A stretch of 32,000 bases of DNA from Balneola sp. (GCA_965267565.1 OZ254085.1:368605-400604); one strand, 5' to 3'; positions 2 through 12,663 are shown, counted from the first letter of the stretch. The notes: a model not told the origin generated them from the letters alone. Program-made: numbers and translations.

Positions 2-1225
2 GGAGTGTTCGTATTCTTTTTTGGTGATATAGCAGCTGATTCCCGTTACAATGATCCCCTCCCGGATACACTTGATGTGAGCGGTCAGGAATTTAACGGA
101 ACAGCCGGAGAAGTGGACTTTGGTGTTACCTACACAGCTGATGCTGATACCGGATGGAATCTGGTTGGTAATCCATTTGGTGCTACCATTGATTGGGATG
201 ACTCTCCTAACTGGACTAAAACGAATATTGAATCCACTATTTATATCTGGGATCCGGCTGCTAACGGAGGTAATGGCGAATATTTAACATGGAATGGAGT
301 AACAGGAACATTAGGAAGTGGACTCATCCCTCCTTTTCAGGGATTCTGGATTAAAGCCTCGGCCACAAGTCCGGAGTTGAAAGTTACCACTGATGCAAAA
401 ACGACCGGAGGTTCATTTCTTAGAAAAGAAGTTCAAAGTCAATCTCAATTTGATGAACCAACTTTTGAATTAGAGTTATCTGCAAACGGACTTCAAAAAA
501 CAGCCAGTTTTGTATTTACAGATAACGGGAAAAAAGGAAAAGATCCATTTGATGCCTTTGAATTACTTCCGCTAACCAACAATCGGCTTGAAATCTTTAG
601 CTTGCTTGGCGACAACACCCCACTTGTAATTAATAACCTACCCAGAGAACTTACTAATCGACTTATAATTCCTGTGGGTGTTAATGGGTTTCAAAATGGT
701 TTACCTATAAGTGGCGATTATTTACTTAGAGCTATTAATTTTGATAACATTCCGGATGAATGGCTTATCATTTTAACTGATAACGATACAGGTGAACAAA
801 TTGATTTAAGAATACAGGAAGAATACGATTTCTTCCACACTACTCGAGGAAAGGCAAAAGTTGCAAAACCTAACACTCAAAGAAAAGTAGTGAGTTCGCA
901 ATCATCAAATACGCGCTTTACGCTCAAAATCACTACTGAAGAAATTGAAGCCAACATACCCGAAACTGCTTTTTTATCTCAAAACTACCCAAACCCTTTT
1001 AACCCTGAAACAACCATTCCATTTGGCATTGATGTAGATTCAGATGTTACTCTTGAGGTATTCGATATCCTTGGCAGAAAAGTCAGTACAGTAATTAATC
1101 GTCGGTTAACTGCCGGAACTTATAATATCAATTTCCAAGCTCAGAACTTAGCAAGCGGAGTATACTTCTATAGACTTACTACCGAATCAAAAGTATTCAT
1201 AGAAAAACTTACACTCATAAAGTAA
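2..1225 (+). CDS. secreted protein, 5'-truncated by the window edge, with T9SS (Por) type-A C-terminal sorting domain
   Basis: The reading frame is open to the window start, so the GTG at 5 is unlikely to be the true start. The last ~80 aa (about nt 980-1222) show the T9SS CTD pattern: LSQNYPNPFNPETTIPF ... VTLEVFDILGRKV ... LASGVYFYRLTTES ... KLTLIK. Confidence 0.8.
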   Translation, partial: GVFVFFFGDIAADSRYNDPLPDTLDVSGQEFNGTAGEVDFGVTYTADADTGWNLVGNPFGATIDWDDSPNWTKTNIESTIYIWDPAANGGNGEYLTWNGVTGTLGSGLIPPFQGFWIKASATSPELKVTTDAKTTGGSFLRKEVQSQSQFDEPTFELELSANGLQKTASFVFTDNGKKGKDPFDAFELLPLTNNRLEIFSLLGDNTPLVINNLPRELTNRLIIPVGVNGFQNGLPISGDYLLRAINFDNIPDEWLIILTDNDTGEQIDLRIQEEYDFFHTTRGKAKVAKPNTQRKVVSSQSSNTRFTLKITTEEIEANIPETAFLSQNYPNPFNPETTIPFGIDVDSDVTLEVFDILGRKVSTVINRRLTAGTYNINFQAQNLASGVYFYRLTTESKVFIEKLTLIK

Positions 1226-1309: not shown

Positions 1310-1813
1310 ATGAAAAATATAGTCATAGCAATCTTCTTAATAGTATTTTCAAGCCAACATTTATACGGTCAGGAACAGGACATTCAGGTTTCAGGAGATG
1401 TAAGAGTAAATGCAAATGTGGTTTCGAGTATTGATTTGATCACAGTCCAGTCTATGACGTTTGGAAACGTTCAACCTGGTCAACAAGAAATTTATATCAA
1501 TCCTATCAACAGTATTAACGCTGGCTTCATGATAGCGACAGGAAATCCCGAAGCATCTTTCAGATTAACTTATTTACCTGAAATAGTTCTAACCCAAGTA
1601 GATGGTACCTCAACCTTAACTTTCACATACGAAATATCAGGTAATTCTATAGAGAATCAATCTACTTCCGAATTATTAGACACCGATAACAGATCGATTC
1701 AGTTTAGTCTTGAAGGCAGGTACTATTTTTGGATCGGCGGTAGAATAAATATTACAAATGCAGCTCCCGGTAATTATGAAGGAGACTTTACAATAGAGAT
1801 AGACTATATATAA
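1310..1813 (+). CDS. secreted fibre/pilin-like subunit, paralog 1 (DUF4402-like by motif)
   Basis: Signal peptide MKNIVIAIFLIVFSSQHLYG/QE. The start is moved from GTG 1295 to ATG 1310. It shares two motifs with the next three ORFs: N-proximal QSMTFGNV, and the C-terminal YYFWIGGRINITNAAPGNYEGDFTIEIDYI-stop. Confidence 0.65.
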   Translation: MKNIVIAIFLIVFSSQHLYGQEQDIQVSGDVRVNANVVSSIDLITVQSMTFGNVQPGQQEIYINPINSINAGFMIATGNPEASFRLTYLPEIVLTQVDGTSTLTFTYEISGNSIENQSTSELLDTDNRSIQFSLEGRYYFWIGGRINITNAAPGNYEGDFTIEIDYI

Positions 1814-1852
1814 TATCTGCATCATATACCCAATACCAGTTTCGGTAATCTT

Positions 1853-2509
1853 ATGAAAAGCATTTTACTACATATCTTTTCATCTCTAAGAAGCATTAAG
1901 AATTTAAAGTTCATTGCTTCAATCAGTCTTATTTTTTCTGTGATTTCAGGATCAAATAACTCATCATCTTTTGTTTCTGCACAAGAAATCAATTTTGGAC
2001 AATACAGCAGTGCTTACAGCATTACATTATCAGAATTTATTCCTTCTGAGGACCTGGATTTTGGAACATTGATTCAGAATCAAGGACCTGCCTTAATTGA
2101 TTTGGTAAATGCAAAAGTTCTTACCCTTGAAGGTGTTAAATACCTGGATGTAATTGTTGATATCACTGCTGATAATTACTTATTACTGAACGGTGATTTA
2201 GGATGTGAAACAGATCCCACATGCAGAATACCATTTACTTTACAAGCTGCATATGCAAACAGAGGAAATAACAATGTAAATGAGTCCGTAAATATCTCTG
2301 TACTATCCAACGTAGCAACCGCTCAATTCCAAATATTAGAAAGAACCGACGGTCCTCCGGGCCCACCTCCTACTCCGGTCTATGAGGGTTATGATCCAAG
2401 CGTGTTCAATGAAACCGCCTATTTGTATATATATGGATCAGTAAACGTTGGGAATGTTGACGCTGGAAGTTACTCCTCGAGCATATCCGTTACCATAAAT
2501 TATGATTAG
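1853..2509 (+). CDS. secreted fibre/pilin-like subunit, paralog 2 (largest; Cys pair and poly-Pro insert)
   Basis: N-terminal hydrophobic leader ending VSA/QE. Family motifs EDLDFGTLIQNQG and AYLYIYGSVNVGNVDAGSYSSSISVTINYD-stop are present. Extra segments are GCETDPTC and GPPGPPPTP. Confidence 0.6.
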   Translation: MKSILLHIFSSLRSIKNLKFIASISLIFSVISGSNNSSSFVSAQEINFGQYSSAYSITLSEFIPSEDLDFGTLIQNQGPALIDLVNAKVLTLEGVKYLDVIVDITADNYLLLNGDLGCETDPTCRIPFTLQAAYANRGNNNVNESVNISVLSNVATAQFQILERTDGPPGPPPTPVYEGYDPSVFNETAYLYIYGSVNVGNVDAGSYSSSISVTINYD

Positions 2510-3035
2510 GTCAGCCATATTCATATTGATTAGCTCAATGTGGGTATTACTTAATCTGACCCCTGCAAATAGCCAGTTTATCAATCTCAGGCTTAAAATT
2601 GAACCGGAACTTAATGTAACCATTGAACAGTCACTTGATTTCGGTGAAGTTGTTACAAATTCAGGATACACGGAGGTTGAGCTTGGCGATGTAAGAATGG
2701 GGGTTTTTTCAATCAGAGCCTATTACACACAAAATATACAGATTTCAATGTCTGTTCCGGATGAACTTACAAATATTAATCCGGCCATAACTGATGAGAT
2801 TCCTTTGGAATTAGAGGCTTCTTATAATAATTCAGGTGTAAATGATATTAGTAAAGCCGTTCCTCTATCCGATAATCAGGGTATGATTTTAATATATGAA
2901 GGGGAAGAAAACGCTCCTCGACCAAATGATGTTTGGCAGGAAATGTTTTTATATGTGTATGGCGGAATAGATGTAGGGAATATACCAACAGGTACATACA
3001 CAGCAGAGGTAGTTGTGAGTGTTACCTATGAATAG
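2502..3035 (+). CDS. secreted fibre/pilin-like subunit, paralog 3
   Basis: The ATG overlaps the upstream stop by 8 nt, suggesting translational coupling. Leader is MIRSAIFILISSMWVLLNLTPANS/QF. Family motifs are QSLDFGEVVTNSG and MFLYVYGGIDVGNIPTGTYTAEVVVSVTYE-stop. Confidence 0.65.
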   Translation: MIRSAIFILISSMWVLLNLTPANSQFINLRLKIEPELNVTIEQSLDFGEVVTNSGYTEVELGDVRMGVFSIRAYYTQNIQISMSVPDELTNINPAITDEIPLELEASYNNSGVNDISKAVPLSDNQGMILIYEGEENAPRPNDVWQEMFLYVYGGIDVGNIPTGTYTAEVVVSVTYE

Positions 3036-3082
3036 GACTTTTCCTATCAAAACATTAGAAGATCTTCATTAAAACACTCTAA

Positions 3083-3113
3083 TTGGAAACACAGTGTATA
3101 GTCTTTAGCTTTG
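3083..3113 (+). promoter_or_regulatory. candidate Bacteroidota-type promoter (TTG, ~20 nt spacer, TAGCTTTG = TAnnTTTG) for the subunit gene at 3154
   Basis: TTG at 3083-3085 and TAGCTTTG at 3106-3113 lie ~40 nt upstream of the ATG, inside the only long gap (118 nt) of the subunit block. Such octamers occur by chance in AT-rich DNA. Confidence 0.3.
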
Positions 3114-3153
3114 ATTAAAGAAATTCATAAAACTTCATTTAAAATTCAAAATC

Positions 3154-3705
3154 ATGAAAAATCTAAAATACATACTCGCTGCTTTGGTATTTGTTGCTTT
3201 TGCTAACACTACCGCTGTTGCACAGGAAACGCAGGATATTAATACTTCTGCTGTTATCCTTGCTGATATTGCCCTTACTTTCGTTTCTGATGTAAGTTTC
3301 GGTAACATTCAGGACACAGGTTCTCCTGTACTTGACCCTCAAGGTACTAATACTGCTGATGTTGGTGGTGGTGCTACTTTTGGAAAATTCTCTATTTCAG
3401 CTGCTAACTCTACTCAATTAGTTATTGACTGGGATCAGGCCACTGTTACTTTAAGTGATGGAACTAATTCTATGACTTTTACTCCTGATGTTTCAGCTAA
3501 TAGTACTGACGCTATTGCATCATCAAGTGATGTAACTAAAGCTACTGCAAACGCAGCTACAGAAACATCCGGTGCTGGTGCATTGTTTGTTTACGTTGGT
3601 GGGAATTTAGGTACACTTTCAGGTCAGGCAGCAGGTACTTACACTTCTGATAGTGGTACTGCAGGTGCTTCTGGTGATTTAACTTTCACTGTTAATTACC
3701 AGTAA
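3154..3705 (+). CDS. secreted fibre/pilin-like subunit, paralog 4; candidate major subunit
   Basis: Signal peptide MKNLKYILAALVFVAFANTTAVA/QE. The mature part is strongly T/S/A/G-rich. Family motifs are SDVSFGNIQDTG and ALFVYVGGNLGTLSGQAAGTYTS...GDLTFTVNYQ-stop. The ...YQ end resembles the C-termini of the classical chaperone-usher pilins FimA and PapA. The gene has its own upstream gap and a strong terminator directly downstream. Confidence 0.7.
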   Translation: MKNLKYILAALVFVAFANTTAVAQETQDINTSAVILADIALTFVSDVSFGNIQDTGSPVLDPQGTNTADVGGGATFGKFSISAANSTQLVIDWDQATVTLSDGTNSMTFTPDVSANSTDAIASSSDVTKATANAATETSGAGALFVYVGGNLGTLSGQAAGTYTSDSGTAGASGDLTFTVNYQ

Positions 3706-3728
3706 TTAATACTTTGATAGAATTAAAA

Positions 3729-3756
3729 GTCTCGTTTCCAACGGGACTTTTTTTTT
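3729..3756 (+). terminator. rho-independent terminator after the paralog-4 subunit gene
   Basis: GTCTCGT-TTCCA-ACGGGAC forms a 7-bp stem (one G-U pair) followed by a run of 9 T, 24 nt after the stop codon. Confidence 0.75.
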
Positions 3757-3773
3757 ATTAAAACTATCCGAAA

Positions 3774-3829: not shown

Positions 3830-4663
3830 ATGAAAATAAAAAGGGTTATAACGAGCGGCTTACTTTTGAGTATGATACTATCTGCGAGTCTTTTTTCGCA
3901 GGTGACCATTGCTCCTACAAATTTATTCCTTGATGATAACTCAAGGTTCGGAACATTTATGGTGATTAATAATTCGCAACAACCACAGGAAATCTCTATT
4001 GATTTCTTATTCGGATATTTTGACACCAACGAAAACGGCGACAAAAGTTTTGTCAGAGACAGTTCTGAAATTGAACAACAATATTCAATAGCAAGTAGCG
4101 TGAGGGCATTCCCTCAAAATTTTGTACTGCAAAGTGGCGATCGGCAAATTGTACGTTTGCGAATCAGTGCGCCACAGAATTTAGTTGATCAAACCTACTG
4201 GGCCCGGGTTAGAACTACTTCAACCCCTGAGAGCCCACCTTTAGAACTTGGAGCTTCTGAAACTGTGAATGCTCAAATTGGAGTTAAATTTGAACAAGTA
4301 ACAGGTTTATTCTACAAAGTTGGAGATACAAACACAGGGATAAACATAAATCAGATACGGACAAATTTGATTGATGAAAACACCATTCAAATTTTGTCTG
4401 ATTTTGAACGTACAGGGAATTCTCCCTTTTTGGGCACTGTAACTACTTCAATAATAAAAGATGGAAGAACAATCCGTACCTCTTCCCTTTCAACAAGCTT
4501 TTATTTTAATGGGACACATGGACATACTTTTAATATTGAAGATATGGAGCCCGGAAGTTATGAGATCAAAGTTGAATTTGTATCAGAGCGAAATGACATA
4601 TCAGATTCTGATTTAGTACAAATGACACCTTCAGTTTCAAGTACCACCGTTCAAATACAATAA
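3830..4663 (+). CDS. periplasmic pilus-assembly chaperone-like protein (PapD-like, divergent)
   Basis: The start is moved from TTG 3779 to ATG 3830. Signal peptide is MKIKRVITSGLLLSMILSASLFS/QV. The mature N-terminus VTIAPTNLFLDDNSRFGTFMVINNSQQPQEISIDF and the later segment FPQNFVLQSGDRQIVRLRISAP...QTYWARVRTTS follow the PapD_N strand pattern. Size and position, between the subunits and the large OM protein, also fit. Confidence 0.5.
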   Translation: MKIKRVITSGLLLSMILSASLFSQVTIAPTNLFLDDNSRFGTFMVINNSQQPQEISIDFLFGYFDTNENGDKSFVRDSSEIEQQYSIASSVRAFPQNFVLQSGDRQIVRLRISAPQNLVDQTYWARVRTTSTPESPPLELGASETVNAQIGVKFEQVTGLFYKVGDTNTGININQIRTNLIDENTIQILSDFERTGNSPFLGTVTTSIIKDGRTIRTSSLSTSFYFNGTHGHTFNIEDMEPGSYEIKVEFVSERNDISDSDLVQMTPSVSSTTVQIQ

Positions 4664-4699: not shown

Positions 4700-7684
4700 T
4701 TGAGAGATTGGTTCAAAATAGCAAAAGGATTATGCTTCATTCTCTTGTGTGTACTTCTAACACAGCCTGAAGCTATAGCTCAGAATACTTCTGATGAAAC
4801 TGAAGTATATCTCGAATTCAGGCACCGCGGTATTATTAACTCTGTTATCATCTCTTATTACAAAGATGATATTTTTTTCTTACCCGTTAACGAAATCTTC
4901 GACCTCCTCGATATAGAGAATAACCAGGATGGATTAACGATATCCGGGGATTTTTCATTAGAGCAAACCCCTTACGAAATAAATCTTCAGGATAATTTCA
5001 TAAGGTTTGGAGATAATCGATATCAAATCTCTTCAGAAGATTATTTAATCAAAGAAATAGACTATTACCTTAGACCCGGTTTATTCCTGGAAATATTTGA
5101 GTTAGAGTTCATGGTGGACTTCAGCAACCTTCGCCTGAATTTGGTCACTCAAAAAGAACTCCCGGTTGTCCAAAAAGTATTAAGAAATCAAAAAAGAAGA
5201 GTAGCTGATAATAACAGATTTTCTAACGAGAATTATGATTTAAAGTTTGCCCGCAAAAAACCCTTCATAGATGGAGGATTTGTAGACTATAACCTATCTG
5301 CAAACCTGTCCGATCAGATTAATATTTACAATTATAACAGTAATGTTGGATTACAGCTGTATGGAGGAGATCTTCAGGGTTCATTATTTGGAAGTTTTTC
5401 TGAAAACTTTTCCAATTTTGCTACTAATAATCTCCGCTGGAGAAGGTTTTTCAGGAACCAAAATCTTCTAACTAAGTTAACCATTGGTCAAACCCAAACA
5501 GATGGGGTTAACAGAAGCTCATACACAGGAATTCGTATTTCGAATGAACCTGTTGAGCCTCGTCTTCTGTTTGATGAATTTGAAGTTCAGGGAAGAACTT
5601 TACCCGAATCGGAAGTGGAGTTATATCTCAACAATGCATTGATAGACTTTCAGGTGTCTGATCAGGCTGGAAATTATCGGTTCTTAGCCCCTCTTACTTA
5701 TGGTTCAACACAATTGGATTTAAGAATTTATGGACCAACGGGGCAAATTATTGAAAGATCAAACCGTATTCAGGTTCCTTTTAACTTTCAGCCCGCAGGC
5801 GTTTTCAATTATGTTGCAAATATTGGGGAGCTCGATAATCCATTAATCGGTACAACAGATCGGGTATTAACTGCACAGGGTTCGGGATCATATGGTTTGT
5901 CTGAGTGGCTTACAGCAAAAGCAGGTATTGAATACTACGAGGGTTTTCATACATCAAGACCTACTTTTATTTCTTCTCTGTCGTCCAGAATTCTTACAAA
6001 TTATATTTTTACGCTTGAAGGCGCTACAGACGCTTTTTATCGATCAACTTTGAGCGCTATTTACCCAAATTCTGCAAGTTTTAATATAGATTTTATAGAC
6101 TATTCTTCCGGATTTAGTATTTATAACCCATCTAATGACGACAAAAGATTAAGTACTACTCTATTCTACCCTTTTACTTTTGGTTCAACCCCTTTTAATT
6201 TCAGAGTTTCTGCTTTTTCACGTTTTGGTGAAACATCCAATATTACCACATTCAGAGTGGATGCAAACTCACGTATTGACAAATTTAATTTCAGAGTCGG
6301 TTATACGGATCGCTATTTTGGTGAATTTGATATTTTGTCCCCAACAAGTTTATCGGCCATTGAAAACTCTGTTACTTATACCATTTCAAGAGGAAGAAAC
6401 ATTCCTTCTTATTTAAAGGGTACTTTTCTAAGAGCTCAAATGAGATATTTGCCTGTTCAAAAGGAAATTGAATCAGCTCAGTTTTTTATTTCGCGAAGTA
6501 TTTTCAAAAACGGAAGGTTTCAACTTTCAGTAGGCAGAAACTTCCTCAACCAATTCAGTTCGGTTAGATTTAGTTTCACCATAGATCTAAACAAAGTCAG
6601 ATCGAGCTCCAATTTCAGTTCAATAAGAGATAATTATAATATTACGCAAAACATCCGCGGTTCTGTTGGTTACGATACCAACTACAATAATTTCTTATTT
6701 ACCAGCCGTGAGCAAGTAGGAAGATCCGGCACTGCAGTAAGACTTTTTGTAGACAATAATAACAATGGGACTTTTGAAGAAGATGAAGACGATCCAATAA
6801 GTGAAAATGCTCTTCGGGTTACCAGATCCGGCGCCATGAACCACACAAAAAACGGCATTCTTTACTTCACCCAAATGCAGCCCTACTTCTATTACAACAT
6901 GGAATTAAATAAAGGCGCAATTAGAAATCCAATGTTGGTTCCGGAATTCGAAAACTTTGGATTGATTACTGATCCAAATCGCTTCAAAAAAGTAGAAATC
7001 CCTTTTTATATGTCAGGTGTGGTTGAAGGAACAGTAGAAAGATTATATGAAAATGGAAGACAATCAGGAATAGCAGGATTAAAAGTTTTGATTTCTTCTA
7101 ATGACGGAGACTTTTTGAAAGAAATCCGAACGTTCTCGGACGGTAGTTTTTATTCATTTGAAATACCTCCGGGAGACTATACAATCAGAGTTGATCAGAG
7201 TCAGTTAGAAATATTGGACGCAAAAGTACGCGACAGTCTTCCTACTTTTGAGGTGAGAGCAATTCCAGAAGGGGATTTTATTGAAGGTTTAAATATTGTA
7301 CTTGTTCCTGAAAACTTCGACGATTCGGATCTTGAAGTAGTTCGTGAAACTACCATTCTGGCTGATCTTGAGGGCAGTTCAGAACTACTCAATTTTGAAG
7401 CTGATTTACAGGATAAAGTGGACGAAACTCTACGCTTGATTGTTCAGGCTCAGAACGCCTTTTATAACAAAAATTTAAATCAAGCATTAGATTTTGTTAA
7501 TCAATCTTTGGAAATCTTTGAAACAGCCCAAGGATATGCCTTGAAAGGCAGTTTATTGTACTTAAAGGGTGATAAAGAAGAAGCTCAAAAAAGCTGGAAT
7601 ATGGCAACAAGATTTAATCCAGATATTTATATTCCTGAGGTAGAAACTTTGGACCAAATCATCAAAACAGAACCAGGCGATTAA
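4700..7684 (+). CDS. large outer-membrane protein in the usher position, with C-terminal CarboxypepD_reg-like beta-sandwich and TPR-like tail
   Basis: TTG start (uncertain) and signal peptide GLCFILLCVLLTQPEAIA/QN. The ~700-aa central region is rich in alternating aromatic/polar beta-strand patterns. About nt 7016-7310 encodes GVVEGTVERLYENGRQSGIAGLKVLISSNDGDFLKEIRTFSDGSFYSFEIPPGDYTIRVD. About nt 7429-7623 encodes a TPR-like helical tail. Confidence 0.5.
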   Translation: MRDWFKIAKGLCFILLCVLLTQPEAIAQNTSDETEVYLEFRHRGIINSVIISYYKDDIFFLPVNEIFDLLDIENNQDGLTISGDFSLEQTPYEINLQDNFIRFGDNRYQISSEDYLIKEIDYYLRPGLFLEIFELEFMVDFSNLRLNLVTQKELPVVQKVLRNQKRRVADNNRFSNENYDLKFARKKPFIDGGFVDYNLSANLSDQINIYNYNSNVGLQLYGGDLQGSLFGSFSENFSNFATNNLRWRRFFRNQNLLTKLTIGQTQTDGVNRSSYTGIRISNEPVEPRLLFDEFEVQGRTLPESEVELYLNNALIDFQVSDQAGNYRFLAPLTYGSTQLDLRIYGPTGQIIERSNRIQVPFNFQPAGVFNYVANIGELDNPLIGTTDRVLTAQGSGSYGLSEWLTAKAGIEYYEGFHTSRPTFISSLSSRILTNYIFTLEGATDAFYRSTLSAIYPNSASFNIDFIDYSSGFSIYNPSNDDKRLSTTLFYPFTFGSTPFNFRVSAFSRFGETSNITTFRVDANSRIDKFNFRVGYTDRYFGEFDILSPTSLSAIENSVTYTISRGRNIPSYLKGTFLRAQMRYLPVQKEIESAQFFISRSIFKNGRFQLSVGRNFLNQFSSVRFSFTIDLNKVRSSSNFSSIRDNYNITQNIRGSVGYDTNYNNFLFTSREQVGRSGTAVRLFVDNNNNGTFEEDEDDPISENALRVTRSGAMNHTKNGILYFTQMQPYFYYNMELNKGAIRNPMLVPEFENFGLITDPNRFKKVEIPFYMSGVVEGTVERLYENGRQSGIAGLKVLISSNDGDFLKEIRTFSDGSFYSFEIPPGDYTIRVDQSQLEILDAKVRDSLPTFEVRAIPEGDFIEGLNIVLVPENFDDSDLEVVRETTILADLEGSSELLNFEADLQDKVDETLRLIVQAQNAFYNKNLNQALDFVNQSLEIFETAQGYALKGSLLYLKGDKEEAQKSWNMATRFNPDIYIPEVETLDQIIKTEPGD

Positions 7685-7709: not shown

Positions 7710-9563
7710 ATGGATAGGTTATATACTTTAATCATTAATAAAATACCTTTTAAGCAATATGTATTAGCTTTCACAGCTATTGTTATGTGTTTTTCAATCG
7801 CTCAGGTTCAGGCACAAACAAGTTCAGGGGCAGGCTTTTCACAATCTGATGATTTACAAATTGCAACCATAGAGCAAAGTTACGATTCTCAGGTTATCCA
7901 GGTAATATCTAATCATTTTGACAGAAAAAAATTCTTTGTTGATGTTAACATCGACGCTGATATTATCCAGGATACCATCACAACTCAAAATCAAATTCTG
8001 ACCTCAAGAAATCAGAACATTGCTCTTCCGGGACTTCCTTTTCTACCGGATGATAACTTGCAGAATGTCGGACCTACAACCGGTAATGAGTCAGCGTTAA
8101 GCCAAAATGTTACCAGAAGGCTTATACTGAATAATATCATAGTAAATATTTATGCTGATACCAGCTTTTCTGTACCTGAACTGGATTTTATGAGGCAAAT
8201 TGCGGGGTTTGCTGCAAAAACAAATCCTGCGAGAGGCGACCAAATTAATATTACTCAGCTTGCTATACCTGATCCTGATTTTGAGCCTATTCCGATCGAA
8301 TCTACTAACATTAATGAACAAGTAGCAGAGCCTGAGACTTTCTTCTCTTCTTTAGGTGATTATATTACTGAATTCATTTTAATAGGCTTGTTTATTTTGT
8401 CTCTCATCGCAAACAGTGTTTTTTACAGAGATAAACAATCAAGTTCTAACCTCCGGCTTGAAAGAGCAAGTTTTAACTTGGAAGGAAATTTCCCGGGAAA
8501 TAACAATCCCTCCGGAGATCCTTTTGCGGGCGAAAGCCGCTCCTTAAATATAACTACTTCATCAGAAGAAGAGTTTTCAATGAAAGAGTTTGATGAATTG
8601 GCTAAAAACTTTTTTACTAAACCCGAAGAAACGGCTCTTCTTTTAGAATACTGGATTGATGAAGATCCGGTAAATGGAGCAACAAAAGCTGCGGAAATTA
8701 TCGCATCGGGGGATTCTACGCTGATCCGTTCCATTAAAAAAGATTTGCCTGAGGAAAAATATGAGGAAATAGTTCAGGCTTTAGAAGAACTATCTCCAAT
8801 GACTATTGAAGAGAAAAACAAAGCAGCTAAATATTTTAATACACTCATTAAAGAAGGTGATAACAAAGAGTCTAAAAAGAAGAATTACGCAAATTTAGGC
8901 CTCTTTAAATTTTTAGAGCATGTTACCAATCACCAGCTTATGGAGCTTCTCAAGAATGAAACAAATCAAACTGCAGCTCTTGTAATTGATTATCTGCCGG
9001 AAGATAAAGCCGCTGAATTGCTGAATAAATTGGATGGCGAAAAAGCTGCTGAGATCATGCTCAAGATGTCAACTTTACACAATCTCACCTATAAACAACA
9101 TAGCTTTATATCGTCCCGACTTTTTGATAAGGTAGTAGAGATCAGAGACGTTGAAAAACAGGAAAAAATGGGAATGGAAAACATCCTCCCAATCCTTGAA
9201 AAGCTACCAGTAAAAGAACAGAAAAAATATATTGAGCAGATTAAAGCATCCGGTTCTGTATTGGGAGAAATGCTTGAGAAACAATTCCTGACAATTGATC
9301 AGATTCCTGATCTTGATAATGAAATAATCAAAGAAGGTGTTGAGGCTTTAAACACTCCTACTCTTTTAGACTCTTTAGTTGGCTTGGATAAAGAAATTAT
9401 AGATAAAATATTGGCTGTACGCCCAAAAAGAGAGCAGAAATTAATACGTATGGAACTTGAAGAAATGGAAGGATCAGATGGTACTGATCAGGCAAAATCT
9501 AAATTGCTAAGCTCTTTAAGAAAATCCTACACCGAACATCTTCAGGAAGAAGTCGTTGAATGA
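7710..9563 (+). CDS. membrane protein with FliF-like periplasmic/TM part fused to FliG-like (N/M/C) cytoplasmic domains
   Basis: There are two hydrophobic segments, aa ~17-35 and aa ~217-239. The periplasmic stretch RRLILNNIIVNIYADTSFSVPELDFMRQIAGFAAKTNPARGDQINITQL resembles the end of the FliF/YscJ ring-building region. On the cytoplasmic side, LLKNETNQTAALVIDYLPEDKAAELLNKLDGEKAAEIMLKMSTL resembles the FliG middle-domain EHPQ region. ILAVRPKREQKLIRMELEEMEG...AKSKLLSSLRK resembles the FliG C-terminal torque-helix region. Confidence 0.55.
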   Translation: MDRLYTLIINKIPFKQYVLAFTAIVMCFSIAQVQAQTSSGAGFSQSDDLQIATIEQSYDSQVIQVISNHFDRKKFFVDVNIDADIIQDTITTQNQILTSRNQNIALPGLPFLPDDNLQNVGPTTGNESALSQNVTRRLILNNIIVNIYADTSFSVPELDFMRQIAGFAAKTNPARGDQINITQLAIPDPDFEPIPIESTNINEQVAEPETFFSSLGDYITEFILIGLFILSLIANSVFYRDKQSSSNLRLERASFNLEGNFPGNNNPSGDPFAGESRSLNITTSSEEEFSMKEFDELAKNFFTKPEETALLLEYWIDEDPVNGATKAAEIIASGDSTLIRSIKKDLPEEKYEEIVQALEELSPMTIEEKNKAAKYFNTLIKEGDNKESKKKNYANLGLFKFLEHVTNHQLMELLKNETNQTAALVIDYLPEDKAAELLNKLDGEKAAEIMLKMSTLHNLTYKQHSFISSRLFDKVVEIRDVEKQEKMGMENILPILEKLPVKEQKKYIEQIKASGSVLGEMLEKQFLTIDQIPDLDNEIIKEGVEALNTPTLLDSLVGLDKEIIDKILAVRPKREQKLIRMELEEMEGSDGTDQAKSKLLSSLRKSYTEHLQEEVVE

Positions 9564-10105
9564 TGGGTTTATCTGGGAAAAACCATATCAAGTATCTTTT
9601 GTATGTAATTGGTATATCACTTTGCATTGAGGTGGGATGTACATCTTCGAATCAGGTTTCAGAAACTCCGCAAGAACAAAATGATACTGCAAATATTGAC
9701 GATGGTTTAAATCAGCAAATCGTTAATGAAAATAATAAAAGATCGGATGAAGCTATTCGCGACTCTTTGAATGCTGTTTTAAAAGACGAAATTCATGCTC
9801 AATATCAGTCGCAGGCTAACCGGCTTACTACATTTTATATATTGGCACAACAACGGTTTTATAGTGGAGATTACCAACAAGCACTTTTTTTGATCAACAG
9901 AGCTGCAAATATTAAAGAGTCCGCTGATGTACTGGCTTTAAGAGGCAGCATTTATTTTGGCTTGGGATCAATTGAAAACTTCGTTTCCAACTGGAGAGAA
10001 GCATTAGAGAAAGACCGGAACGTACCAATACCGCCCTCACCCCCGATCATTGAAGAGCTAAAAAATCAGGGACTAATAAATGAAAATCTTGAACGTAACT
10101 TTTAG
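9560..10105 (+). CDS. TPR-like periplasmic protein (possible lipoprotein)
   Basis: The ATGA overlap with the upstream stop suggests translational coupling. A hydrophobic leader ends in ...IEVGC (Cys27; atypical lipobox). The helical segment FYILAQQRFYSGDYQQALFLINRAANIKESADVLALRGSIYFGLGSIENFVSNWREALEKD is TPR-like and paralogous to the tail of the 994-aa protein. Confidence 0.5.
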   Translation: MMGLSGKNHIKYLLYVIGISLCIEVGCTSSNQVSETPQEQNDTANIDDGLNQQIVNENNKRSDEAIRDSLNAVLKDEIHAQYQSQANRLTTFYILAQQRFYSGDYQQALFLINRAANIKESADVLALRGSIYFGLGSIENFVSNWREALEKDRNVPIPPSPPIIEELKNQGLINENLERNF

Positions 10106-10114
10106 AAATTTTAA

Positions 10115-10912
10115 ATGAAGATTTCATTTTCTAACATCATCAGCTTTTTAGTTTCATTGGGAATCCTTGTGTGGGGTTCTTTGATGGTGATTGGTTTTGC
10201 AGAATACAATGTAATCCCTTCAGACTTTGAGTTCCTTAACCTGCCAAGTTTAGCTATTGTATTCGGAGGAATAACAGCAAGCGTATTTATTAGCTATCCC
10301 TTTCGAAAAGTTGTAAGAGCATTTCGTGAAAGCTTTCGCCTGTTCTCCCAAAGTAATATCGACGATAAACTGCTTGAGCAAGACATTGAAAATATTCTTG
10401 AGTGGCAAAAGATGATTCGAATCGACCGAAACGCTGCTGTAGCGCAGTTAAGTGAGCAATACAGCGGACAATTTGAAGGATATTTGTTTTCGATACTGGA
10501 TACCAATTACTCCACAGAGGAGTTCAGAGAATTAGGTGAAATCAATATTCAGGAAACTTATACTCGGCAACAGCAAATAAATCAGATTATGGTAAGTATG
10601 GGTAAAACCGCACCGGTATTTGGTATGCTGGGAACTTTGTTTGGTCTGATTGTCATCCTTTCCGGTTTTAATGAAGTGGATTCTCTCCTTTCCGGTCTCG
10701 CAGCTGCCTTAATGACCACTTTATATGGGATTTTAATTGGGAATTTCATTTTCACACCAATGGCAAAGAAGATGAATAATATTGCTTCGCTACAGTACTT
10801 CCGGGAAAAAATGATTTTAGAAGGCGTTTTACTGATACAGGAGCAAAAATCTTCTCTTCAAATTTACGACAAGCTTAAAGCTCACATGCATCGAAATGTT
10901 CAACAATTTTAA
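10115..10912 (+). CDS. MotA/PomA-type stator A subunit (MotA/TolQ/ExbB proton-channel family)
   Basis: Four-TM layout with a ~100-aa cytoplasmic loop between TM2 and TM3. TM3 is TAPVFGMLGTLFGLIVIL. TM4, LAAALMTTLYGILIGNFIFTPMAKKM, closely follows the PomA/MotA pattern (ALLTTLYG....N..F.P.A.K). Confidence 0.8.
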   Translation: MKISFSNIISFLVSLGILVWGSLMVIGFAEYNVIPSDFEFLNLPSLAIVFGGITASVFISYPFRKVVRAFRESFRLFSQSNIDDKLLEQDIENILEWQKMIRIDRNAAVAQLSEQYSGQFEGYLFSILDTNYSTEEFRELGEINIQETYTRQQQINQIMVSMGKTAPVFGMLGTLFGLIVILSGFNEVDSLLSGLAAALMTTLYGILIGNFIFTPMAKKMNNIASLQYFREKMILEGVLLIQEQKSSLQIYDKLKAHMHRNVQQF

Positions 10913-10926
10913 GGTACTGCCAAGCT

Positions 10927-12663
10927 TTGAAAGTTGATGATCCATATAATAAAAAACAGTCATTATATCCCGAGCAGGAATTAGAATCTGCTGATGATGA
11001 TAGCTGGCAGGTCAGTTATCTCGATATAATCACTATTATTCTGGGCTTTCTCATTATCCTGCTATCCGTTTCTTCTTTAAAAGAAATAGAAACCTTTTCG
11101 GTATCCGATCTTTTTAAATCATCTGAAAATGAGACGGAGTTCATCACCACTCCAATCGAGCAAATTAAAGAACGTTTAGAGGCACTTCTTGCACAGGAAA
11201 TTGCAGATGGACAATTAGAAATCTATCGGGAGCTCAATGATGTGAAAATTCGCTTCAGAAGTGATGATTTATATCAATCGGGAAGTGCCGAAATTCAACC
11301 CGAAGCAAGTGCTTTGTTAAACCGAGTTCTGGCAGCTTTTAAACTAATCGAGTATGACGATTTTGAAATTGATGTGGAAGGTCACACTGATAACGTTCCT
11401 ATTACTACCGCTGCTTATCCATCCAACTGGGAACTTTCTACCGCTCGTGCCTCCAATGTCGTAAAATATTTCAATGAATCAGGAATTAAAGACGATAGGC
11501 TGAAGGCTTCCGGGTATGCTTCTTCTCGTCCTGTTGTGGAATTCGATGATCGGGGAAACCCTGTGGCTGCTTCAAAAAGTAAAAACAGAAGAATTGTATT
11601 GCGACTGTTTTATTCCAATCCTGATCAGATGTTAGCTGACCAAACAGAAGCAGTAGAAGAAATAACCGAAGAACCTATTGAAACTCCTGAGAATGAGCAG
11701 ATTCTCCCTGAAAATTCGCGGGAAACTGAAGCAGAGGAAGAGCCTCAAAACAACGAGCCAATTGCTCAAATCGAAAATTCCGCTTCACCAGAAGTAGTCG
11801 AGGAAGAAACTCCGGAGTCTGTTAACGAAGTGCAGGAATCTCAGCCTGAGACTATTAAAAGTAATACTTCGACTCCATCCACTCCACCCTCTTCCGGAAA
11901 TGAAGATAATATACAAGGATGCAGATACTCGGTTCAGGTGGGCAGTTATGAATCATTCGCAAACAGTATAAGAGTTGCTAACAGAACGGAAAATCAAACT
12001 TCACGATCTTTCGAAATCGTTTACAACAACTTTCTCTTCTCTGTTCGAAGTAATGCCTTCAATTCACTAACCCGTGCTTACCGTTTTAATGATCAATTTT
12101 CTGATGCCAATGATTCAGAAGAACCTTCTGCAGTTATTTATCAGTGTTATCAACAGGACTATCAGTATCCTAATTCGCTTAATTATGTTATTCAATTAGG
12201 CTTTTTCCAGAACGAACAAAATGCGCTTAATTTTCAACAAACACTTGCAAACGAATATGGTATTGACGCCAAAATTGAGTCATTATCAGTTCAGGCTTAT
12301 ACAGTTTTCGCCGGACCATATTCTGACAGGAAAGAAGCTCAGCAAAAAATTAGTGAGTTTCGTCAAAATGATATTCTGAGCAACGTTTTTCTTAAATATG
12401 ATCCCAAAACTGTTTCTGATTATTCCTACGATTATCAAATAATCGCAGGATCTTATCGAAGTAAAACCAGAGCTTTTCAAATTTCTCAAAGCCTGCAAGA
12501 TCTCCTAAATATTAGTTCTGAAGTGATCACAAAAGAGGATGGAAATTCTTATGTAATTACTCAATCTCAGAATAACTGGGATGATACACTAATAAGACTT
12601 GAGCAGTTGGCAGGAAGTAATCTAAACCTCACTCCTGTTATTTATTTGACCGAGAGGAGTTAA
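10927..12663 (+). CDS. MotB-type stator B subunit (OmpA-like peptidoglycan-binding domain) with acidic linker and three C-terminal SPOR-like repeats
   Basis: TTG start (uncertain). The N-terminus SWQVSYLDIITIILGFLIILL is a MotB-like TM with a conserved Asp. The OmpA-like domain is FRSDDLYQSGSAEI...VEGHTDNVPI...SNWELSTARASNVVKYF...NRRIVLRL. A Glu/Pro/Thr-rich linker spans about nt 11620-11916. SPOR-like repeats begin YSVQVGSYES, YVIQLGFFQNEQNALNFQ...YTVFAGPYSDRKEAQ and YQIIAGSYRSKTRAFQ. Confidence 0.8.
   Translation: MKVDDPYNKKQSLYPEQELESADDDSWQVSYLDIITIILGFLIILLSVSSLKEIETFSVSDLFKSSENETEFITTPIEQIKERLEALLAQEIADGQLEIYRELNDVKIRFRSDDLYQSGSAEIQPEASALLNRVLAAFKLIEYDDFEIDVEGHTDNVPITTAAYPSNWELSTARASNVVKYFNESGIKDDRLKASGYASSRPVVEFDDRGNPVAASKSKNRRIVLRLFYSNPDQMLADQTEAVEEITEEPIETPENEQILPENSRETEAEEEPQNNEPIAQIENSASPEVVEEETPESVNEVQESQPETIKSNTSTPSTPPSSGNEDNIQGCRYSVQVGSYESFANSIRVANRTENQTSRSFEIVYNNFLFSVRSNAFNSLTRAYRFNDQFSDANDSEEPSAVIYQCYQQDYQYPNSLNYVIQLGFFQNEQNALNFQQTLANEYGIDAKIESLSVQAYTVFAGPYSDRKEAQQKISEFRQNDILSNVFLKYDPKTVSDYSYDYQIIAGSYRSKTRAFQISQSLQDLLNISSEVITKEDGNSYVITQSQNNWDDTLIRLEQLAGSNLNLTPVIYLTERS

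Follow-up and report, generated by a model that had tools for sequence, protein, structure and literature searches.

Four DUF4402 proteins of a marine Balneolaceae bacterium as likely pilins of a highly diverged chaperone-usher pathway

In this study, we analyzed a window of 32,000 nts (Balneola sp., GCA_965267565.1 OZ254085.1:368605-400604) from the 99.5% complete genome of a marine Balneolaceae bacterium. The window carries four adjacent genes for small secreted proteins (named S1 to S4), followed by genes for a putative periplasmic chaperone (C5) and a putative outer-membrane usher (U6). Sequence comparison places all four secreted proteins in one family, Pfam DUF4402, for which the Pfam entry gives no function and of which no mention was found in the literature searched. 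Taking sequence comparisons and predicted structures together, we consider it likely that S1-S4 are the pilins of a surface fiber built by a highly diverged chaperone-usher pathway. The features of this locus are as follows, in window coordinates and with the evidence for each in brackets:

1310-1813, + strand: S1, DUF4402 subunit of 167 aa counted from the ATG (open reading frame (ORF), Pfam, orthologs)
1853-2509, + strand: S2, DUF4402-like subunit of 218 aa (ORF, weak Pfam match, hhalign)
2502-3035, + strand: S3, DUF4402-like subunit of 177 aa (ORF, hhalign)
3036-3153, + strand: intergenic gap between S3 and S4, candidate internal promoter region for S4 (spacing across loci)
3154-3705, + strand: S4, DUF4402 subunit of 183 aa (Pfam at the cut-off, complex models)
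3725-3760, + strand: hairpin resembling an intrinsic terminator (stem of 12 bp, loop of 3 nts) with a T-run after it, directly 3' of S4 (terminator scan)
3830-4663, + strand: C5, periplasmic chaperone with a predicted PapD fold (AlphaFold2 (AF2) model, Foldseek)
4700-7684, + strand: U6, outer-membrane usher of 994 aa by predicted fold (AF2 model, Foldseek)

Four paralogous subunits of one family

A first-pass annotation of this DNA had described S1-S4 as four secreted paralogs with shared sequence features, and this description agrees with the alignment of the four proteins, in which an F-G pair (some 25-30 residues from the mature N-terminus), a G-G pair, a G-x-Y motif and a penultimate Tyr are invariant. 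The N-terminal segments, the Cys pair (GCETDPTC) and the proline-rich insert (GPPGPPPTP) that it quoted are all present in the ORFs, and each of the four signal peptides is cut before Gln, as it had stated. Cleavage before Gln follows the Bacteroidetes Q-rule for signal-peptidase-I substrates, which applies throughout the phylum (PMC5837995). S1-S4 would thus be substrates of signal peptidase I and not lipoproteins, although this feature is general rather than specific to one system.

Paralogy is apparent at the level of single sequences, with blastp E-values of 1e-11 between S1 and S4 and 7e-13 between S2 and S3. It was examined further with one profile per ortholog group. Conservation was followed in 20 orthologous loci in genomes of the same family, in which chaperone identity ranges from 36 to 86%; these genomes are related, and the loci are not independent samples. 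Profile-profile comparison by hhalign gave probabilities of 98.9-99.9% and E-values of 3e-17 to 1e-30 (S1 with S4, 6.9e-25; S2 with S4, 98.9% and 3e-17; S3 with S4, 99.0% and 5.3e-18; S2 with S3, 1.1e-30). The suggestion in the first-pass annotation that these proteins belong to DUF4402 (PF14352, gathering cut-off 25.2 bits) was borne out by hmmscan of the window proteins, with matches listed up to an E-value of 1. S1 exceeds the cut-off at 33.2 bits and S4 lies at it, scoring 24.5 bits by itself and 25.3 bits together with its frame neighbors in a genome search, which was counted as over the cut-off. S2 (13.3 bits) and S3 (12.8 bits) fall below it individually and are joined to the family by the profile-profile comparison. 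In the same hmmscan, neither the SCPU nor the Fimbrial model matched any of S1-S4.

The penultimate Tyr is retained in the orthologous loci by 20/20 S1, 18/20 S2, 20/20 S3 and 16/20 S4 proteins. In distant relatives, Tyr is frequently the last residue or is absent, and the F-G motif is missing from some S1 orthologs. The alternating pattern of small and hydrophobic residues at the N-terminus is maintained in distant relatives. Among 41 relatives of the S4 group, 31 match DUF4402 (best E-value 9e-38) and three match SCPU (PF05229) weakly (best 0.047). SCPU had no match in 201 genomes of the phylum, a result of little weight since the control genomes were silent too. An exhaustive search with the S1 profile returned 770 representative clusters at E-values up to 0.001, implying that the DUF4402-type family is large. 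Three distant DUF4402 representatives lie on contigs of 1.2-1.5 kb, from which nothing could be learned about their neighboring genes. Elsewhere in the genome, a lone 243-aa ORF (G000:C1:2898483-2899211, + strand) matches the hidden Markov model (HMM) of the S4 group weakly, with an E-value of 1.5e-4.

When a profile of the S4 family (the S4 group plus distant relatives) was searched against PDB, the three best matches were all to CsuA/B, which forms the rod of the archaic Csu pilus, with E-values of 0.0072, 0.0099 and 0.014. The alignment is almost full-length (residues 5-155 of 155) and pairs the donor region, the FGT motif and the C-terminal block, in which G-x-Y...VTVN-Y of the S4 profile corresponds to G-D-Y...VTVN-F of CsuA/B.

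Predicted chaperone, usher and donor-strand interfaces

All 20 Balneolaceae loci share the same gene order, that is, four subunit genes, C5 (274-295 aa) and U6 (917-1491 aa). The close homologs bear the names Gracilimonas, Balneola and Balneolaceae, and the genome of the window contains one such locus. Of 121 genomes sampled from the family, 84 contain C5, and the C5 profile had matches in 75 of 301 genomes drawn from the whole phylum. In a distant set of 19 further loci from elsewhere in the phylum, most comprise two to six subunit genes together with C5 and U6. Two variants of this arrangement were observed: six tandem subunit genes precede the chaperone gene in L042:10564-14847, and in L030:4399-7334 two chaperone genes are parted by a subunit gene, accompanied by a 1533-aa usher and by motor genes.

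C5 is most likely a PapD-type periplasmic chaperone, judging from its predicted fold. The AF2 model has two beta-sandwich domains (mean predicted local distance difference test (pLDDT) 93.3, predicted template modeling score 0.84), and most of its top Foldseek matches in PDB are chaperones of chaperone-usher systems, with a probability of 1.00 and E-values of about 1e-8. These chaperones are CfaA, FimC, PapD, YadV, CupB2, SafB, EcpB, CsuC, Caf1M and DraB. Nine of 40 members of the C5 family match PapD_N (best E-value 1.2e-6) and thereby bridge the family to pilus chaperones by sequence; a few C5 relatives also have weak matches to the Pfam model of WxL-interacting proteins (WxLIP).

Hallmarks of pilus chaperones include an invariant Pro that puts a kink in strand D1, and an Arg in strand F1 is typical of archaic and alternative chaperones (PMC4654587). 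In C5, Pro96 (conserved in 39/40 members) is located where a break in the model separates strand 92-95 from strand 98-101, and from its position, rather than from superposition, it would be the counterpart of CsuC Pro59. Arg127 lies on strand 122-134 and within the predicted S4 interface, and is conserved in 21/21 members in the family and 33/40 in the phylum. Directly after Pro30-Thr31, the window protein has Asn, as do 13/40 relatives, and only 7/40 have Arg. The predicted S4 interface also includes residues 219-224, 233-234 and 255-258 of domain 2, Arg255 among them. In archaic chaperones, it is the F1 Arg together with residues of domain 2 that anchors the C-terminus of the subunit (PMC4654587).

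For U6, Pfam matches are confined to the CarboxypepD_reg/SdrD_B and TPR models. Its AF2 model (mean pLDDT 86.8) begins with an N-terminal mixed domain (34-150), followed by six long strands (190-281), a six-strand insert (290-359), a further eighteen long strands (369-659), two beta domains (664-870), one of them CarboxypepD_reg-like, and a TPR tail (883-990). With strands counted from the secondary-structure list of the model, this predicted layout is the plan of an usher, namely a barrel of 24 strands in which the plug follows strand 6. In a Foldseek search against PDB, the top 18 matches are all FimD or PapC (E-values of 6.5e-31 to 3.6e-9, up to 947 aligned columns), and SdrD is the first match to a protein other than an usher (1e-7).

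Complex prediction, which the first-pass annotation had proposed for chaperone-subunit and subunit-subunit pairs, favors both interactions in donor-strand topology when set against controls. These predictions used our own alignments, so the benchmark counts hold roughly, and their output consists of lists of interface residues. C5 with S4 scored 0.87, as against 0.02 for the best of three controls; in a rough benchmark, 58/80 solved complexes reached this mark, as did 2/110 mismatched pairs. On the chaperone side, the predicted interface consists of the N-terminal (A1) strand, residues 25-32, and of segment 142-160, which the monomer model shows as a loop of low confidence that runs into the final strand of domain 1. 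The donor segment within it (about 145-156) appears long, with approximately five alternating hydrophobic residues. On the subunit side, the interface covers the first core strand (36-43), the F-G region (46-54) and the C-terminal strand (175-183) of S4, and residues 24-35 of S4 are left free. Three copies of S4 scored 0.67, and the best of three controls 0.00; the mark was met by 20/30 homodimers and 1/23 single-chain proteins, a benchmark that is rough here because three copies were used. In this model, residues 24-39 of the last copy contact a single neighbor, at its residues 39-55, 157-166 and 175-181. The donor touches 48 acceptor residues, 39 of which also belong to the chaperone interface.

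These models support an arrangement in which the chaperone grips the first and last strands of S4 and the N-terminal 16 residues of the next S4 dock at the same place. The same groove would then be contested by the chaperone strand and the N-terminus of the next subunit; competition of this kind defines donor-strand exchange. The earlier idea that the alternating N-terminal stretch acts as a donor strand fits its first half (S4 residues 24-39) but not its second half, which is predicted to be the subunit's own first strand and to line the groove.

The arrangement and divergence of the four genes suggest different roles for their products. In the window, S1 and S2 are 39 nts apart and S2 and S3 overlap by 8 nts; across the orthologous loci, these three genes overlap or are separated by 0-18 nts (40 nts in L004). 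A gap of 51-1286 nts precedes S4 in 19/20 loci, the remaining one being L005, whose called S4 ORF begins upstream of its signal peptide. In 3036-3153, a scan that does not cover Bacteroidota-type promoters gave no consensus sigma-70 site. In 20/20 loci, a hairpin and T-run separate the fourth subunit gene from the chaperone gene, and the stem sequences differ. Among the components, conservation is lowest for S4 in 16/20 loci (median identity 33% vs 44-51%). Based on the gap before it, the terminator after it, its fastest divergence and its predicted self-polymerization, S4 is probably the abundant, exposed major subunit of the rod, and the tightly packed S1-S3 are probably minor subunits. It was also observed that S4 of one locus (L011:3750-4349) is 76% identical to S4 of the window, while the other five components are 50-60% identical; given the usual divergence of S4, this suggests that the allele of the major subunit has been swapped between lineages.

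Among the putative minor subunits, S1, whose signal peptide is cut before Gln21, is the best-conserved paralog; it occupies the first position in 20/20 loci, and its C-terminal ...EIDYI block is nearly invariant. The mature N-terminus of S2 (QEI.FG.YSS) is strongly conserved, its proline run (PPGPPPTP) is found in 23/24 orthologs, and at least two Cys residues occur in the mature part of 16/24. S3 also has a strongly conserved mature N-terminus (QFINLQ..EPEL), with Gln25, F47, G48 and Y176 invariant among 21 orthologs. The conserved N-termini of S2 and S3, along with the proline insert and Cys pair of S2, would fit specific heterotypic strand pairing, and a placement of S2 as tip or adaptor subunit is a guess.

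Assembly, alternatives and neighboring motor genes

In the assembly pathway proposed here, each subunit would be exported by Sec and cut before Gln by signal peptidase I. In the periplasm, C5 would capture it by laying its N-terminal strand and the strand at about 145-156 against the first and last strands of the subunit, completing an open beta-sandwich (donor-strand complementation). At U6, the next subunit would displace the chaperone strand with its free N-terminal extension (donor-strand exchange), so that subunits join head to tail and the fiber is threaded outward through U6. S4 would form the bulk of the rod, and S1-S3 would be co-translated minor subunits at its tip, as adaptors or at its base. 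Paralogy, family membership, the conserved gene order, the predicted chaperone and usher folds, the predicted interfaces and the conserved terminator are results of the computations, and the production of a fiber, its arrival at the surface, its subunit order and its target are inferences.

Several points weigh against this pathway. The whole case is computational, built on sequence and predicted structure. Among sequencing runs, those that contain the locus look like DNA runs of the genome itself, and three putative RNA runs contain none of it. The incomplete Ig fold of the subunits follows from the predicted interfaces alone, and the high complex scores may in part reflect the predictor's memory of solved chaperone-usher complexes, in which case they show likeness and not binding. 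Pfam Usher (PF00577) has no match in U6, in the whole genome or in 34 relatives of U6; C5 of the window has no Pfam match, and PapD_N has none in the whole genome. Searches of PDB with profiles of S1, C5 and U6 found no solved structure by sequence, and the link to CsuA/B is marginal; a second profile reached it at E-values of only 0.16-0.25. Comparison with E. coli FimA, FimC and FimD by hhalign gave probabilities of 0.6-2%, which is a weak test since the templates were single sequences. Among the fold matches of C5, WxL-interacting proteins of Enterococcus (9i1y and 9i25) fit equally well, at ranks 3, 4 and 6 with E-values of 1.1e-8 to 1.3e-8. Moreover, all four subunits lack a second, adhesin-type domain, and the locus therefore has no obvious tip adhesin.

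The same machinery might make a surface coat or matrix, a sheet or amorphous layer with its donor strands kept, instead of discrete pili. The SCPU ('spore coat protein U') system of Myxococcus is said to lay down a coat, the closest solved relative of the subunits is in the SCPU/Csu family, none of S1-S4 has a separate adhesin domain, and the S4-S4 contacts predicted beyond the donor strand (at 84, 87, 90 and 181-183) would suit a layer. However, the last copy in the three-copy model touches one neighbor, as in a linear chain, and the combination proposed here, a major gene followed by a terminator plus three minor subunits, is the classic pattern of pilus operons. In addition, Balneolaceae are not known as spore formers, which counts against a coat. 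We regard this alternative as quite unlikely. Alternatively, S1-S4 might never polymerize and might be folded beta-sandwich cargo that is escorted by C5 and either exported by U6 as monomers or kept in the periplasm. Chaperone binding alone would suit such a pure export role, but the N-terminal extension is predicted to sit in the chaperone groove of a neighbor with 39/48 residues shared, its alternating pattern is conserved in distant relatives, and four paralogs with distinct conserved N-termini would be hard to explain; monomeric cargo is thus very unlikely.

Chaperone-usher pili are textbook adhesins of Proteobacteria, and the known fimbriae of Bacteroidota are of type V, whose pilins are exported as lipoproteins and polymerize after proteolytic removal of an N-terminal strand. 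Since the host belongs to the wider Bacteroidota, in which type V pili are common, type V (FimA/Mfa-type) pilins were considered as well. All four proteins have signal-peptidase-I sites ending in A/G/S and then Gln, with no lipobox Cys; they are 167-218 aa in length, whereas type V pilins are about twice as large, and their genes adjoin those of a PapD-fold chaperone and an usher, neither of which is used by type V systems. No window protein matched the Pfam families of type V pili. This reading is hardly credible and was rejected, as the lipobox is absent and the locus has a chaperone and usher of its own. A further candidate, type IX secretion (T9SS) cargo, was rejected because S1-S4 lack a Por_Secre_tail domain.

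Downstream of U6, the window contains the following genes, all identified by Pfam:

7710-9563, + strand: FliF/FliG-like membrane protein
9560-10105, + strand: 181-aa TPR protein
10115-10912, + strand: MotA-like protein
10927-12663, + strand: MotB/OmpA/SPOR protein

This FliF-FliG/MotAB module is present in 10/20 loci of the family, and the fiber module is conserved with or without it. The C-terminal TPR tail of U6 (window 7442-7684) is homologous to the 181-aa TPR protein (BLAST, about 1e-7). A TPR-tailed usher was found in 11/11 loci with motor genes, including one locus of another family, and in 0/23 loci without them; these counts come from related genomes, and their independence is overstated. 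Nine of the motor-less ushers end in a SPOR domain, which in the window is carried by MotB. Apart from one FliF-FliG match at 0.0074, a whole-genome search with locus-specific HMMs, which is not a general flagellar test, found no second copy of FliF-FliG or MotA at E-values up to 0.01. It is conceivable, though doubtful, that the usher tail and the TPR protein physically couple the fiber to FliF-FliG and the MotA/MotB stator, and that ion flow through the inner membrane powers or gates secretion, rotation or retraction; the coupled locus would then encode an active fiber and not a passive pilus. This idea is weakened by the half of the family loci that keep a complete fiber module and no motor genes, from which it follows that the fiber system does not require the motor module.

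Two other neighboring genes were noted. The gene upstream of S1 (window 2-1225, + strand) encodes a protein with a Por_Secre_tail T9SS sorting domain (E-value 3.7e-11); it is probably unrelated to the fiber locus, as BLAST placed it at the same position in just 2/20 related loci. About 7-10 kb upstream, a giant ORF (G000:C1:358774-361998, open frame of 2677 aa) matches Invasin_D3 with an E-value of 6.4e-23. Its DUF4402 match (E-value 0.05) is probably noise, given that the protein is an invasin-like Ig-repeat adhesin.

If S1-S4 are indeed pilins, DUF4402 would gain a probable role together with a mechanism, and a complete chaperone-usher system would have been overlooked in Balneolaceae by Pfam, which misses the usher as well as the chaperone of this genome. 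With a C5-type chaperone in about a quarter of the genomes sampled from the phylum, the pathway would cover a wider range and a larger sequence space than known so far, and it would gain an usher variant with a periplasmic TPR tail or a peptidoglycan-binding SPOR tail. The model also offers a concrete mechanism of surface attachment for an abundant marine and saline group, and it lays the fiber-side groundwork for asking whether a pilus is the target of the neighboring flagellar-type rotor and stator.

Comparison with known systems

A literature search for pili in Balneola or Gracilimonas yielded only unrelated papers on chaperone-usher systems. The first-pass annotation had likened the penultimate Tyr to that of classical chaperone-usher pilins. 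The Tyr is conserved as it said, but assignment to the classical class is not supported, since the residue aligns with Phe152 of CsuA/B, only the last strand can be aligned with FimA (...TFTVNYQ vs ...TFKVQYQ), and no Arg follows 'PT' in the chaperone. In CsuA/B, the carboxylate of the terminal Phe152 is held in the chaperone cleft (PMC4654587), while in the window proteins one further residue follows the near-terminal Tyr. Given the CsuA/B alignment, which is marginal, and the missing Arg after 'PT', the system seems nearer to archaic or non-classical pili than to the classical kind.

Like the archaic (sigma) systems Csu of Acinetobacter baumannii (CsuA/B-A-B-C-D-E) and CupE of Pseudomonas aeruginosa, the locus encodes several small single-domain paralogs, one chaperone and one usher. 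Subunits of the Csu rod are linked through N-terminal donor strands, as is predicted for S4, and are held in a zigzag by a second contact, the twin-hairpin 'clinch' (PMC9452303). In likeness to archaic chaperones, C5 lacks the classical Arg/Lys anchor of domain 1, has an Arg on the strand that would correspond to F1, and has domain-2 residues in its predicted interface. The locus differs from archaic systems in that its subunits do not match Pfam SCPU and that U6, which is invisible to Pfam Usher, adds a CarboxypepD_reg-like domain and a TPR or SPOR tail. In comparison with Csu, the gene of its probable major subunit is last and not first among the subunit genes, it has no gene for a two-domain tip adhesin, and its subunits carry one residue beyond the terminal aromatic residue of CsuA/B.

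Among the classical pili of E. coli, type 1 (FimA/C/D) and P pili (PapA/D/C) were compared. C5 matches FimC/PapD and U6 matches FimD/PapC in predicted fold, and the donor-strand topology is the same as that predicted for C5 and S4. The pap and fim operons have an attenuating terminator after the major subunit gene; in E. coli K-12, fimA is directly followed by a small RNA gene, and S4 is followed by a terminator. Unlike these systems, the locus has no significant sequence similarity to them and no Fimbrial, PapD_N or Usher match, and in C5 the carboxylate-anchoring Arg after 'PT' is replaced by Asn and the donor segment appears long.

The WxLIP proteins of Enterococcus are two-domain Ig-like proteins whose fold matches C5 at the same level as chaperones of chaperone-usher systems do. 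They belong to a cell-wall-associated system of monoderm bacteria that has no outer-membrane usher, whereas an usher gene directly follows C5. As a separate observation, the match hints at a fold common to a component of Gram-positive surface complexes and pilus chaperones. Taken together, the locus lies outside Fimbrial, PapD_N, Usher and SCPU by sequence, and by predicted mechanism and predicted fold it is a chaperone-usher system.

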